This document shows, one piece after another, positions 1 through 15,639 of a stretch of DNA of 64,000 nt. Source of the DNA: Heptranchias perlo (Eukaryota); assembly GCF_035084215.1 (NCBI RefSeq), contig NW_027139729.1, forward strand, positions 1,612,001 through 1,676,000. The letters are read 5' to 3'. The notes under the pieces were generated by a model. That model saw only the letters and a list, made by a program, of their open reading frames with translations, was not told the DNA's origin and did not search any database. Position numbers and translations under genes: made by a program. Position 1 is the stretch's first letter. Each line of letters starts with the position of its first letter.

Positions 1-561
1 ACAAACTGTTCGCCAGATTGACAATTCCCGGGACAGGCTTTCCTCCCCGCTCGGCCTGTGCTGCAGATTCTCGGGGGTTAGTTGTCGTTTCCCAGCTCAG
101 TAATTGTTAAACACTCTGAGGCCGCCGCTCCCCACAGTGTCTGGTCCCCAGTTTCAGGGGCAGGAGACAATCACAGCTGTGGATGTGATAATCCATATCT
201 GGTTTTACATGGTTATATTAGTCACACTCAGCAATATGTTTGGTTGAGACGATAATACAAATTATCTGCTCTGGGCTCCTCCAGTCTCTCTGTCTTTCTC
301 TCCCTCCTCCTAAACTGACTGACAGACAAAAGTAACTGGTGTCCTATCCGTCCCATTCTCAACACCCAGAGACGGCCAGTTACTGAATAAATTCAACATT
401 CATCGGCAGTCCAGTGTCAGACAGTTGCAGGCTGTTTCTCTCCACCTTTCCTTACTGGACTGGAGACTGATAAATGCACCGTCAGATCGGCTCATACAGA
501 ATAGAAGGGACAGTGACCGTCTCACCAACAGCACCGGAGGTCTGTTCACAGACACAGAATC
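1..561 (+). repeat. Direct segmental duplicate of 11313-11871 (region upstream of H1)
   Basis: ACAAACTGTTCGCCAGATTG... through CAGACACAGAATCAG aligns at high identity with 11313-11871. Confidence 0.9.
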
Positions 562-2709: not shown

Positions 2710-3229
2710 GAGTTCGGAACAAATTGCTGAAACCGGACAATGTGCAGTGTGAGCGTGTTTGTGATTGGTGGCAGATACTAAATGTGATTGGATATCTGAA
2801 GAAACCAATCAGAGAGTGAAAGTAAATGTTTTGTGTCCTCACGCCCAATCGTCCAATCACAATCATTGCCTTCCCCCATCCCTCATTACCATAGGGCTGT
2901 GGGGCTGCCTATTTAATCCGAGCTCGGAGCGGATTTGGGTCATTTCTGGGTCTGAAATTGAGTTTGAAAATGCCTGAGGACAAGAAAGCAGCTCCCAAGA
3001 AGGGCGCCAAGAAAACCTTGAGTAAAGCACCAGCCAAGGGCGGCAAGAAGCGGAGAAAGTCGAGGAAGGAGAGTTACTCCATCTACGTCTACAAAGTGAT
3101 GAAGCAGGTTCACCCCGACACCGGCATCTCCTCCAAGGCCATGAGCATCATGAACTCCTTTGTGAACGATATTTTCGAGTTGTAAACAATTTTACAACAC
3201 CAAGTTATAGTCCAGCAATTTTATTTTAA

Positions 3230-3270
3230 ATTCACAAGCTTTCGGAGATTTTCTCCTTCCTCAGGCAAAT
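3230..3270 (-). ncRNA. Minimal type I hammerhead ribozyme of the PLE
   Basis: ATTTGC-CTGAGGA-A-GGAG(AAAAT)CTCC-GAAA-GCTT-GTGAAT: catalytic core, stem II, palindromic stem III, stem I. Confidence 0.8.
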
Positions 3271-3519
3271 GTTTCAAGATCTCCTTGAAGCCTACGCATT
3301 TATACATATTGAACAATACATGGTGTTTACAGACTGCCCCTGCAACTGCCCGTTGCCAAGGCAATCACCGTGTTCAGACAGAGAGGTGTTACCTGCAGAA
3401 CCCCCGAATACACATTCAACAAAAAAACAAACAGGGAAAAAAAAACAGAGAAAAAAAAAAACACAGAGAGAGGCAGAAACATCCGGAAGGCAGAGAGAGC
3501 CAGCAAATGACCCATTATA

Positions 3520-5498
<1,979 letters not shown>

Positions 5499-5531
5499 TA
5501 AAACTCGACAATGTACTGAAAAAAAAACAAC

Positions 5532-5547
5532 GGCTCTTTTAAGAGCC
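5532..5547 (+). terminator. Histone 3' stem-loop (H2B copy 1)
   Basis: GGCTCTTTTAAGAGCC followed by ACCCA and the purine-rich HDE GAAGGAGCTG. Confidence 0.9.
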
Positions 5548-6160
5548 ACCCACAACCTCTCTGAAGGAGCTGCATTTCCGATATATTTACATAGTATGTT
5601 TTTAATACCGCGATATTATTCCAATCGAAAACTGATACTCTACGCCGTTGAAATTTCTGACCCATAAACTGAACACGAGTTTCTGATCCGCTCCTTCCCA
5701 TTCGCTTTGTTCTTAAAGCGTTACTATTCCGGCGACGAACACACCCTGAATGACCCCTTAGCATTTCCATTATCTCTATGAATTCAGTCTCCCCACATTA
5801 AAAGCAAACCCACCCCTTGCAGTAACATAGCGGAATAGGGGCAGAATGAGAACTCCGTCCGGGTCCGTCTTTTCACAGAAACACTCTCGGCTCTGTGAGA
5901 AGGGACCAATCTATAACGTGTCACTTTTATAAAGACTAAATTGAAATGTGTCCCTTCACGGAATGCTGTGAATGGGGATTTAGTCCCGAACGGTACAGTT
6001 TGAAAGCGATGATAAAATTAGCGAAAATTTAAAGCAGATTTTAAAATAGCGCCAGCGATTGGTGACGGGTAGCGCTGAATAAGACAAGATAAAAAGAACG
6101 GGTTTAAAATCTTGTGCTCAGGGCGACATTGATCGAAATCCGGTCCTTTACTGCACTGAA

Positions 6161-7890: not shown

Positions 7891-8660
7891 TTATAAAGGG
7901 TCTAAGGGGATCCGCCCCTGGCCTCTGATTGGCTTCAGTCCCACACCCAGTCAGGGAGGGATCGCCCCTGGACGATGATTGATCCGAGCTCAGTCAGTCA
8001 GACCGAAACGGCGGGAGTTATTGGGCCCCAATTGGCTGAGCTGAAATTAATCATCAATTTCAAAAAGCCCGCCAATTTCAGAGCATCAAATAACAGTTTC
8101 AAGAAAATCTCATTTCCCTCCAGCAATTTAAGAATCTCTCTCTTTATAATCTCCATTATTTCCGACTCGTCAGCTTAAATCTCAGGCTGTTTCACATTCC
8201 GGTTCATTCTCTGATCTGTCTGTAAACGGGCGGGAATAAAGCCCCGGTCATTGCTTTCCGGAACGGGACAAAGTCCAGCTTCAATTTCAAAAATCCCGCC
8301 AGTTCCGGCCCGGTGAACCGCTCCTCAAACAGAAACTTCACATCGAACTGATAATTGAATGAGGGCAGGAAATAAAGACCGAGCAGAGAGGACACAGCGG
8401 GAGAGGGAGTGAGGCGGGATTTTACTCTGAGCGGAGAATGTAATGTCTGGGGAAAGACTCTGGATCCCCGCCTGTTCATTTATACCGTGAAACCGGGAAT
8501 TCCGCTGCTTCTCTCGGGATGGCCGAGAACCCCGGCCGTTGTTTCTGATCTCCCTGTACCGAGTGTTGGGGAATCTCCCCATAATAATTAAATATCGGAA
8601 ACTGATTCCCCATCCCGAGATCTTTCCTCTCCCGTTCCCAGGTCAGTGCTCTCTCTGTGA

Positions 8661-8817
8661 TGATGTGGAGATGCCGGTGATGGACTGGGGTTGACAATTG
8701 TAAACAATTTTACAACACCAAGTTATAGTCCAGCAATTTTATTTTAAATTCACAAGCTTTCGGAGATTTTCTCCTTCCTCAGGCAAATGTTTCAAGATCT
8801 TGAAAAATTGTTTACAA
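8661..8817 (-). mobile_element. Non-autonomous 157-bp PLE derivative (pLTR with hammerhead and tail, plus a 14-bp inverted segment), 12-bp TSD CTCTCTCTGTGA
   Basis: 8698-8800 is identical to 3180-3282; TSD at 8649-8660 and 8818-8829; empty site in the paralogous H4 at ~14265-14276. Confidence 0.92.
8748..8788 (-). ncRNA. Minimal hammerhead ribozyme (second copy)
   Basis: Identical to 3230-3270. Confidence 0.8.
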
Positions 8818-8839
8818 CTCTCTCTGTGAGGCGGTGGGT

Positions 8840-8855
8840 GGCTCTTAGAAGAGCC
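8840..8855 (-). terminator. Histone 3' stem-loop (H4 copy 1)
   Basis: Minus strand GGCTCTTCTAAGAGCC ACCCA. Confidence 0.9.
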
Positions 8856-8890: not shown

Positions 8891-9211
<321 letters not shown>

Positions 9212-11871: not shown

Positions 11872-12419
11872 GTCTTTACCTTACAACAGGGTGTTCATAT
11901 TACGCTCAGTAACAGTATCCTGCTTTCATGTACAGCACTAGAGAGAGAAAGACAGACCGACAGATAAACAGAGAGAGAGACATACACACAGACACAGTAT
12001 CAGTCTCACACTTCCTATCAGTGTGTCCGTTTCACGCTCAGTAACAGTATCCCACCTTCATGTACAGCACTAGAGATAGAGACACAGAGAGGCACAATAT
12101 CAGTCTCACATTCCCACCAGTGTGTCCGTTTCACACTCAGAATGGGAAGAACCTGCTATTTAAAATCATTGCTGCTTTCTCCCCCCAAACCAATCGTGAA
12201 TGTTCCTGGTTTAGTTCCAGTCTCACTCTGTGGTTGGACAGTGAAGAGTGGAAACAGAGCCGGACAGTAAGGATGTGGGGAGTTATACAAAGAGCATCTA
12301 TTGAAGGCACCAGGTGAGAAGTGTGAAGGATACATTTTAAACAGCGGCTGTTGGGTTTCGGTTGAAAGGTTAGTCCCATGGGAGAGGGGATCAGAAACCT
12401 GACCTGAACAAAGGTCCCT

Positions 12420-13010
12420 GCCCTCTCACACTCACATACAGTTCCACGGACTGAGAAATACAGAATGAATCCCACACTCACACACAGTGCCAGGGAGTGA
12501 GAGATACAGAATGAATCCCACACTCGCACACAGTGCCAGGGAGTGAGAGATACAGAATGAATCCCACACTCACACACAGTGCCAGGGAGTGAGAGATACA
12601 GAATGAATCCCACATTCACATACAATATCAGAGAGTGACAGTTACAGAATCAATCCCACGCTCAGACAAAGTATCAGAGAGTGACAGATACAGAATGAAA
12701 CCCTCAGTCACATACAATACCAGAGACTGACAGATACAGAATCAATCCCACACTCACACATAGTACCAGAGAGTAAGATACAGAATAAATTCGTCACTCA
12801 CATACAGTATCAGAGAGTGACAGTTACAGAATCAATCCCACGCTCAGACAAAGTACCAGAGAGTGACAGATACAGAATGAAACCCTCAGTCACATACAAT
12901 ACCAGAAACTGACAGATACAGAATCAATTCCACACTCACATACAGTTCCACAGACTGACAGATACTGAATGAATCCCACACACACAGGACCAGAGACTGA
13001 CAGATTCAGA
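12420..13010 (-). repeat. ~46-bp minisatellite (same family as 20410-21230, opposite strand)
   Basis: Repeated GATACAGAATGAATCCCACACTCACACACAGT. Confidence 0.85.
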
Positions 13011-14286
13011 ATTGCTGCTTTACTCGGTCTTCATCCTTTGAATCTGGTGGAGAAATTGAAATAAAGTCAGTGAAACTGCCCCATTTTAATGTTTGTCTCT
13101 GTAGAATTTACTGCCCAATAAAGTGAACACGGATCCGGGGTCCGTTCAATTCCCCTTTTGCTTTGCTCTTGCTCTCATTCAGATTTACACCGCCCCCGGT
13201 TTTCCCGTTAACCACCACTTTCAGGGCGAAGAATCAGAATTCAGTTCCTTCCTCTTTCTCACTGCGGAGCCAGTCTCTGAAATAATTAATTACTGATATT
13301 AATATCCCGCATATTAGCAGCCCGTTCCCCGCATTGTAACAATCCAGAATGAACGCCTCGGGGAAAAGAACAGGCTCATTTTCAGGCTTCGTCAATGATT
13401 CCGTTTTCAGGACACACGGCTCCTGTTCAGTCCCTGCAACGGAATCAATCGATAACCTGTAATTTGTTACTTTTACAGGTAGAAGTGAAATTTGTCCATA
13501 TCAGCAATCTATGAATGGGGTTTTATTCCGCAATTTATGGACAATGTGTTTTTAAACAGCGCTAGGAATCTGGGACGTGTAATACGGAATAACATTATTA
13601 CAAAGAGATTTTAAGTCTTTGTCTGAAAACGACATGTCCGGAGTAATTCACTGATTTCATACACTGAAATTGGCGGCCTTTTTCAAATTTTAAAAAATCG
13701 GTCAATTCTGGCCAATAATTTGCTCTGATTTCTTATTGACGTCTCTCCGATTGGTTAAGGAAATTAGTTTTCAAGCAAAGCAACCAATGAGAAGTAGCCT
13801 CAGTTTGGAGCGGGCTTTGAGAGTTGGGCCTGTGGTAATTCCAGGTCCCCAATGACTGAGCTCAAACGGTTCAATTTCACAAACCCTCTCAGTATCAGTG
13901 TCAGAAACAACCATCAGAGTGAAAATCCATATCACAAGCTGGCCCCTTATCACAGCGGCTCAGCTTAACCTGTTCTCCCATGGAAACCCCCGGTCCCACA
14001 TCACAACATCTGACTGAGAAACAGAACCAAAACAGAGCGAATGGAGTGAAGGAGCATTTCACTGAGGGGGGAAATGCAGGTCCGGGTAAACTCACTTGTA
14101 ACGTTCCCTGGACAATTCAGTGCACTCATTCAGGGAAATTTTCCTCTCAGTAACCGGTGCAGCACGCCGCCGATCCCACGTCACCGTATTGTGTTCCTGA
14201 AAACTCCTTAATTATAAAACTATTCCCGAGCCCCATATATCCCGCACCAGTTCCCAGGTCAGTGCTCTCTCTGTGAGGCGGTGGGT

Positions 14287-14658: not shown

Positions 14659-15182
14659 TCACTCAGATCGCTGGTGAATGAAAAACTCTCGCCTTTCTTC
14701 TCGATTTATAAAGCCCGCCCCGACCTGGTTGAGAAAGGCACATTATCGGAGAGGCCGGGGAGGAGTGTTTGAATGACAGACAGAGCATGAAGTGCGGGAG
14801 GGGAGGAGACTGGCTCAGAATGACGGACAAGCGGACGTGTAACTTCGAGCTCCGCCTCCAGGAATCAGTTACCGTCCTTTATAAAATTTTCACCAGCATC
14901 AAATGCGAAATACAAATTCAGACACAACCCTTACAGACTCCGGCTTGATATTCAAGGATTGCTGGGAAAAAAGGCGGAAAATACAATTTAAATTCAATAA
15001 TTGAGGCACACTACAGTTCCAATACAATCACGATCATAACAGAATCAATCAGTGCCGCTCCGGGACCGTTGGAAGAGGGAGTTTTAGTTTTCAGATTTGT
15101 AGCTGACAGTAGGCGCCCAATAGTTCAATAAACATAAATCGGTGTGGAAGGCACCCGATACCTTTCCGTGCTTGGGTCAGTA

Positions 15183-15552
15183 TGGGACTGGATAGATTCA
15201 GGCACTGGGATGGATGGAGACTGGTCCTATGTGGGGACTGGATAGATTCAGGCACCGGGATGGATGCAGAATTATCCTGTGTGGGGACTGAATAGATTCA
15301 GGCACTGGGATGGATGGAGAATGATCCTGTTTGGGGACTGGATAGATTCAGAGACTGGGATGGATGGAGACATTTCCTGTGTGAGTACAATGAGTTTCAT
15401 TAGAGCTGAGGTCATTGGGGACTGGATAGATTCTGGGAACGGAATGGATGGTGACACATCCTATGTGGGACTGGATAGATTCAGGGACCGGGATGGACAG
15501 ACCCTGGTCCTGAGTGGGGAATGGATAGATTCAGGGACCGGGATGGACAGAG
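15183..15552 (+). repeat. ~50-bp minisatellite, about 7 copies
   Basis: GGGACTGGATAGATTCAGGCACTGGGATGGA-like units recur at 15184, 15234, 15284, 15334 and onward. Confidence 0.85.
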
Positions 15553-15639
15553 ACTTGCCCCGGGCCACTGTGCGAGGCGGAATCTTACCTTTCGCAACCT
15601 TGGCGTCCAATCTGACCCTGAGACGGGCATCCGACCACA

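Follow-up and report, generated by a model that had tools for sequence, protein, structure and literature searches.

Two minimal hammerhead motifs in a Heptranchias perlo histone cluster read as separate insertions of one Penelope-like element family

Two identical minimal type I hammerhead motifs lie on the minus strand of a 64-kb stretch of Heptranchias perlo DNA (the window). We read both as the ordinary minimal hammerhead of an abundant Neptune-type Penelope-like element (PLE) that entered redundant histone genes in two separate insertions, the copy in the histone H4 flank being a likely neutral passenger that rarely cuts (probability about 0.8). A preliminary description had called the motif duplicated. 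The second copy is indeed identical, and both lie within a 103-nt perfect repeat (3180-3282 = 8698-8800), but they were delivered by insertions independent of each other, with a separate target-site duplication at each site, and not by a duplication. The motifs are laid out as follows.

3230..3270, minus strand: minimal type I hammerhead, copy 1; C3 at 3264, predicted cut 3236/3235
3270-3265, minus strand: copy 1, 5' strand of stem I
3264-3258, minus strand: copy 1, core CUGAGGA, then a single A at 3257
3256-3244, minus strand: copy 1, stem II GGAGA/UCUCC, with 5 pairs and a 3-nt loop or 4 pairs and a 5-nt loop
3243-3240, minus strand: copy 1, GAAA, with the palindrome AGCU at 3240-3237
3236 and 3235-3230, minus strand: copy 1, U17 and the 3' strand of stem I
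8748..8788, minus strand: minimal type I hammerhead, copy 2, identical; C3 at 8782, predicted cut 8754/8753

The core follows the type I order, with CUGAGGA, GAAA and UU set against the consensus CUGANGA ... GAAA ... UH. The nucleotide left unpaired between 9 and 10.1 is the A at 3257, the G10.1-C11.1 pair is G3256-C3244, and stem I of copy 1 has 6 pairs, two adjacent G-U among them. The core, stem II, GAAA, AGCU and a stem I with G-U pairs are all present on the minus strand as originally claimed. There is no loop 3, and a palindromic run occupies 15.1-16.1 (AGCU in these copies, ACGU in another family found in this genome). Without a loop, AGCU makes no stem within one molecule, so helix III could only be an intermolecular 4-bp helix; what had been called stem III is a palindrome and not a stem of a single molecule. 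The motif is positioned in the PLE pseudo-LTR, downstream of the stop of the reverse transcriptase (RT) ORF at 3520, and in tandem copies it lies directly upstream of the ORF start. At the sequence level it has all the features of a PLE minimal hammerhead, which supports the proposal of a minimal type I hammerhead in a PLE pseudo-LTR with a dimer-requiring palindromic 15.1-16.1 run.

A descriptor for the minimal type I hammerhead matched exactly twice in the window, at these two copies, and in none of 200 dinucleotide-preserving shuffles of it. The Rfam hammerhead families gave no match at or above the gathering score in the whole window and none at E<=10 in 3100-3600, so the covariance-model check proposed with the preliminary description came out negative. 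We read this silence as a gap in the library for motifs that lack helix III, not as absence of the motif. Because Rfam misses the motif although the motif covaries, the lack of a covariance-model hit is an unfair refutation. A covariance model made from the genome's own variants gave high scores solely to the two known copies and found no third convincing motif in the window; this result is circular, the model having been built from variants of the same genome.

Covariation was scored on 21 variants, hand-picked from 52 distinct rows with junction-truncated and mutated rows left out. In this set 93.4% of cells are paired and 9 of 13 pairs changed on both sides; none of 500 shuffles was as high, and slid controls gave 22-50%. 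Independent covariation events in stem I are few because three rows of one distant family supply most of the signal. Within the main family the fifth pair of stem II occurs as G-C, A-U, C-G and G-U. Conservation was examined in the 78 core-spanning copies among 94 found by downstream sequence, a sample pre-filtered on the core start and GAAAG: G8, A9, G12-A15.1, U16.1 and U17 are constant in 78/78 copies, and N7 and the stem II and loop columns vary. The folding energy of the motif is ordinary (z -0.74 to -1.10). The same genome also carries a second, distant family of minimal hammerheads with the ACGU palindrome and different stems I and II (for example L060:2182-2226, L088:885-929 and L016:2445-2489).

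Copy 1 is part of a 5'-truncated element that splits a histone H2B gene.

2970..3179, plus strand: 5' half of H2B, 70 codons, ending in the target-site copy TCGAG at 3175-3179
3180..5333, minus strand: 5'-truncated Neptune-type PLE of 2.15 kb, ending at site A with no tail, antisense to the interrupted H2B
3299..3304, minus strand: TATAAA box in the pseudo-LTR; transcription would start ~30 nt downstream (~3274), 10 nt before C3
3520..5333, minus strand: 3' part of the PLE ORF, two-thirds of its length and open; it corresponds to residues 300-902 of the complete ORF, with 4 differences
5332..5501, plus strand: 3' half of H2B, beginning with the second TCGAG (5332-5336), with a 2-nt overlap with the PLE homology
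5527-5572: H2B stem-loop, 3' of the H2B 3' half, a match to Rfam Histone3

This element has 99.3% identity to a full-length tandem genomic unit and is flanked by a 3-5-bp target-site duplication in H2B. Its ORF part (3520..5333) covers RT, a CX4CxxC linker and a GIY-YIG-type endonuclease with CCHH. The full ORF is intact in another genomic copy (L126; 902 aa), where tandem units have a motif spacing of 3,081 bp. The RT domain of the 902-aa ORF matches RVT_1 (E 3e-10), and a motif scan found DKG, YIDD, CX4CxxC at residue 753, VVY-CxxxC-YIG and a later His pair. Pfam GIY-YIG gave no match in the 902-aa ORF, and the endonuclease is called by this motif scan. Traits of endonuclease-bearing PLEs are present, namely tandem units, inverted truncated arms and a 38-nt tail (50/100 copies). 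A CX2-5CxxC linker between RT and endonuclease is described for Neptune and Nematis, with Penelope and Poseidon lacking it (PMC8557442). A Poseidon identity, favoured at first, was dropped since the window element has this linker. We assign the parent to a young Neptune-type PLE, the clade being taken from the linker motif alone, rather than from a tree, and the linker being shared with Nematis. The family is young, with copies more than 99% identical and intact tandem units. Separately, the TATA box of this element (3180-3304, minus strand) aims into the 5' half of the broken H2B, and antisense H2B RNA is possible. Elsewhere the window has seven Rfam tRNA matches (32815-32886 and 57988-64000; six near the window end, several near-identical) and tandem arrays of 46-nt and 50-nt units between histone genes (12383-13078 and 15182-15568).

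The element shares with the Neptune clade, as described by Craig et al. 2021 (PMC8557442), the C-terminal GIY-YIG with CCHH, the CX2-5CxxC linker, DKG, an inverted 5'-truncated arm and a 30-40-bp tail at one end only. It differs in that (TA)n targeting is absent at both window sites. With the PLE minimal hammerheads reported by Cervera and De la Pena 2014 (PMC4209133) the motif shares the type I order, the lack of helix III and loop 3, a palindromic 15.2-16.2, the extra nucleotide between 9 and 10.1, G10.1-C11.1, a short helix I, and dispersal as thousands of single copies with some opposite-strand pairs. Helix II has 4-5 bp here compared with 7-8 bp in the Schistosoma families of that report, and the 71,548 copies counted here with one pattern are ~8-fold above its figure of 9,000 for Xenopus. 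Its abstract, results and discussion do not name cartilaginous fish, and a Penelope/shark/hammerhead literature search returned no publication on PLE hammerheads of this host group; supplements may list shark motifs.

Copy 2 lies in a short insertion behind an H4 gene, whose limits were set by comparison with empty paralogues.

8649..8660, minus strand: 12-bp target-site duplication, second copy
8660..8697, minus strand: 38-nt PLE tail, site A to site B, ending at the AT of the ORF start codon of full-length tandem copies
8661..8817, minus strand: 157-bp solo PLE-end insertion, consisting of inverted 14-nt stub, palindromic joint, sense arm and tail
8790..8805: head-to-head joint of the arms, a perfect 16-nt palindrome with AGATCT at its centre; the same -47/-47 joint occurs in other copies
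8804..8817, plus strand: inverted 14-nt stub of the element end (site A)
8818..8829, minus strand: first copy of the 12-bp target-site duplication; contains the H4 histone downstream element's purine core, normally spaced
8840..8855, minus strand: H4 3' stem-loop, then ACCCA; U7-guided cut expected after 8835
8891..9202, minus strand: histone H4 gene lying upstream of the solo insertion; its frame is open and it carries T71I as a private change

The sense arm runs from -47 (47 nt before the cut) through the hammerhead. The stub is likely the remnant of an inverted arm that lost ~80 nt, including an antisense hammerhead, because L157 and L169, which have this joint, are intact head-to-head pairs. 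Either window copy as donor of the other was considered and rejected: a tail is missing from the H2B copy, and the H4 copy lacks both ORF and promoter. Among sequencing contigs (4 runs) on the H4 3' flank, two from one sample cross the site without the insertion and may come from an allele that lacks it or from a paralogue; the filled junction is spanned by none of the contigs, and they are no proof either way.

How such copies end was tallied across the family, using the first places on contig C1, a non-random sample that includes paired arms. The 3' ends fall evenly on two sites (50 at site A and 50 at site B of 100; 51 and 45 of 96 in a second sample), which matches the two internal RT start sites and tail of the Anolis element (PMC11167929). 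That report describes two internal RT start sites that define the tail, and uncut RNA as the dominant substrate. No 5' end coincides with the ribozyme cut site in 100 copies of the downstream 24-mer. Four of 100 lie within 3 nt of it (~2 expected from local background), and 55/100 lie at -29 to -70. In the window's subfamily, 15 of 96 distinct copies end exactly at -39, which is TATA+30 counted from the T of TATAAA, and the 5'-end rate is 3.0% per nt at -34..-45 vs 0.05-0.4% beyond -60. Where a subfamily has its TATA box 6-7 nt further upstream, the 5' ends of 13 among 32 short copies fall at TATA+29..31. That 5' ends track the TATA spacing suggests run-off reverse transcription of uncut RNA from the start site. 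The copies ending at -39 have plain genomic flanks (6/15) or inverted joints (9/15). Since the peak sits on a quasi-palindrome that joins inverted arms, part of it could stem from the chemistry of joining or from stalled RT. Short palindromes immediately upstream of the hammerhead recur as the joints of head-to-head pairs (joint -39/-34 in L017, L148, L168, L176 and L194; joint -47 in L157 and L169), and within a pair site A is the end of one arm and site B usually that of its partner.

We propose that a TATA promoter ~10-17 nt upstream of the hammerhead core would drive PLE transcription and that RT would start inside the RNA at sites A and B, as in the Anolis element. On the first pseudo-LTR/ORF junction of uncut RNA, RT would run off at the RNA 5' end, leaving solo stubs of ~95-140 nt, frequently in head-to-head pairs with a short palindrome at the joint. 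The copy behind H4 would be one of these pairs, minus most of one arm. The ribozyme would cut slowly, solely as an AGCU dimer or with help from the PLE protein, and its product would not be the main insertion template. With about even odds, the tens of thousands of solo stubs in the genome may be a fossil map of the PLE RNA, which would start at a capped end at TATA+30 and carry in its first 45 nt a hammerhead that never defines the template end and acts as a dimer- or protein-triggered switch removing the cap and ~40 nt.

Similar copy structures are known from other PLEs. Poseidon of Anolis carolinensis (Frangieh et al. 2024, PMC11167929) shares the tandem units and two 3' ends ~30-40 nt apart, and is reported to have no RNA or genomic ends at the hammerhead cut, as the window's family has no genomic ends there. 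The Poseidon ORF starts inside stem II whereas the hammerhead here is wholly upstream of the ORF; Poseidon RT starts 111-118 nt into the ORF whereas site B here is at the start codon; and the linker of the window element is missing from Penelope and Poseidon in the account of PMC8557442. Penelope of Adineta vaga (Arkhipova et al. 2013, PMC3846280) shares head-to-head pLTRs with palindromic joints and an optional tail, and we count its 8-10-bp target-site duplications and its TATA and initiator-like pLTR motifs as further likenesses. Its palindromic joints were read by the authors as self-priming on an antisense template (PMC3846280). The joints here would fit a pair of cDNAs, one from site A and one from site B, linked through microhomology.

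Another reading is that the hammerhead of the youngest subfamily is decaying, no longer cuts, and is retained because it overlaps the promoter and RT-start region. The 5' strand of stem I reads TTCAC, TTTAC or TTTGC by subfamily, a series that puts G-U for two Watson-Crick pairs, though the change is unrooted, with monomer energies of -10.7, -8.2 and -7.2 kcal/mol, respectively. The window has TTTGC, the weakest stem I among the main variants. In a transcript modelled from the predicted start, the probability of stem I goes from 0.85 to near 0 as the RNA lengthens. A nearest-neighbour model that omits the catalytic core gives -13.5 kcal/mol for the active dimer vs 2 x -7.2 kcal/mol for the monomers and -21.7 kcal/mol for an inactive dimer, and predicts no drive towards the active dimer. 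None of the 100 copies begins at the cut site, catalytic mutants in the Anolis work kept inserting in vitro (PMC11167929), and Naiads are reported to thrive without canonical hammerheads (PMC8557442). Against decay, both stem I changes preserve pairing, and the catalytic core is constant between subfamilies whose sequences vary freely immediately upstream and in loop II, and also in the distant second family with its different palindrome. A constant core amid variable surroundings points to selection on the fold, and we regard decay as unlikely, at odds of roughly one in five.

Two insertions 5.5 kb apart could also indicate that the element prefers histone clusters. By pattern counts in the 3.25-Gb genome, the exact 35-mer has 9,181 copies, the downstream 24-mer 48,126 matches and the degenerate core the 71,548 copies given above. 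Two motifs in 64 kb are unremarkable because 1.4 degenerate motifs are expected (P for two or more, 0.41); for the exact 35-mer, two in 64 kb has a Poisson P of 0.015 before allowing for the choice of window. In the 200 kb around the window there are 10 motifs vs 4.4 expected, and the other H4 loci (60 kb in total) hold 6 motifs in 4 of 19 vs ~1.3 expected, one of them splitting the H4 coding region. A mild excess in histone clusters, 2-4-fold, is possible. It is at most few-fold, however, and includes motifs that occur as paired arms; the two window sites have no common target sequence, the family is spread genome-wide (the first 4.9 Mb of contig C1 have ~100 motifs), and histone-gene redundancy or open chromatin would yield the same excess. 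Targeting is accordingly improbable in our estimate. Family insertions in or near other H4 paralogues were seen at L137, L138, L140, L141 and the G000:C1562 flanks, the interrupted H4 being split at codon 7.

The preliminary description also raised the idea that the H4-flank copy, in the H4 sense orientation, could cleave H4 read-through RNA 60-90 nt past the stem-loop. The orientation is confirmed, and so is the distance: the predicted cut is 86 nt past the H4 stem-loop and 81 nt downstream of the normal U7-guided cut, whose position follows from established histone mRNA processing. A meaningful role is not borne out. The stem-loop, ACCCA and the purine core of the downstream element are all intact upstream of the ribozyme. 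The insertion is present in 1 of 20 H4 paralogue loci (the best 20 of 40), that one being the query locus itself, and its gene has T71I, a change missing from the window's other H4 and from 16 other paralogue loci with a readable H4 start. Pairing with U7, counted by hand with the human/mouse U7 of PMC7026596, which may differ from the host's U7, runs for 13 nt in a row in the filled allele and for 8 plus 4 in the empty allele, so normal H4 processing should not be weakened. The host U7 snRNA was not found in the genome by family search or short motif. The inverted stub (8804-8829, minus strand) happens to lengthen the duplicated downstream element, giving better pairing with mammalian U7.

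H4 transcripts would normally be cut 81 nt upstream of the ribozyme, and the motif-bearing downstream piece would normally be degraded; the downstream histone cleavage product is reported to be degraded 5'-3' by CPSF73 (PMC7026596). A single minimal hammerhead did not cleave in vitro and dimers were weak (PMC4209133), and cleavage by the Anolis PLE ribozyme required the element's protein (PMC11167929). The antisense arm has probably been lost, which would leave the motif free, and in the folded read-through RNA stem I has a pairing probability of ~0.4 and stem II of 0.96. Lunse et al. are said to have described dimeric cleavage of small PLE hammerheads. Since the motif is predicted to be partly folded, rare cleavage in trans is conceivable, and nothing suggests a function. 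A fail-safe cutter of H4 read-through RNA, working by trans pairing with any of thousands of identical copies or through PLE protein, would draw on this freedom and on the confirmed orientation and distance. It is opposed by the insertion's presence in one paralogue with a private change, U7 pairing that is not worse, degradation of the downstream product, the inactivity of single motifs and the weakest stem I among the main variants, and we consider it very improbable. A regulatory role of the ribozyme in H4 expression is unlikely because of the 1/20 paralogues, the private T71I, U7 signals intact 81 nt upstream and a lone copy without helix III. The literature search, judged by title and abstract start, found no related publication on hammerheads and histone read-through.

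Least credible is that the short H4-flank element is a non-autonomous retrozyme spreading through its own circular RNA. In favour, it is small, non-coding and hammerhead-bearing with a target-site duplication, and PLE ends are the source of non-LTR retrozymes, hammerhead-bearing ones being reported from one chondrichthyan (10.64898/2026.07.22.740005). Against this, it is a single unit with no tandem array and no TATA box, the joint at its 5' side belongs to a set of many variable ones, and it ends at sites A and B of the PLE itself. The preprint in question (Li, Clavereau and Pollet 2026) describes, as here, a type I hammerhead in a short PLE-derived unit. Its non-LTR retrozymes need tandem repeats with the hammerhead in at least 2 consecutive units, whereas both window copies are single, with 5.5 kb of histone genes and PLE ORF between them. 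We file the window motif as a PLE minimal hammerhead, and neither as a canonical Rfam hammerhead nor as a non-LTR retrozyme.

The motif as such is ordinary, PLE minimal hammerheads having been described in 2014, and the H4 idea would amount at most to a one-off accident in one of dozens of paralogues. A literature search by title found nothing on 5'-end clustering at PLE start sites. The family offers a clean genomic read-out, in which no copies start from the cut site and 5' ends follow the TATA box. If confirmed, this would put the ribozyme right at the beginning of the mRNA and would speak against it as the maker of the insertion template.
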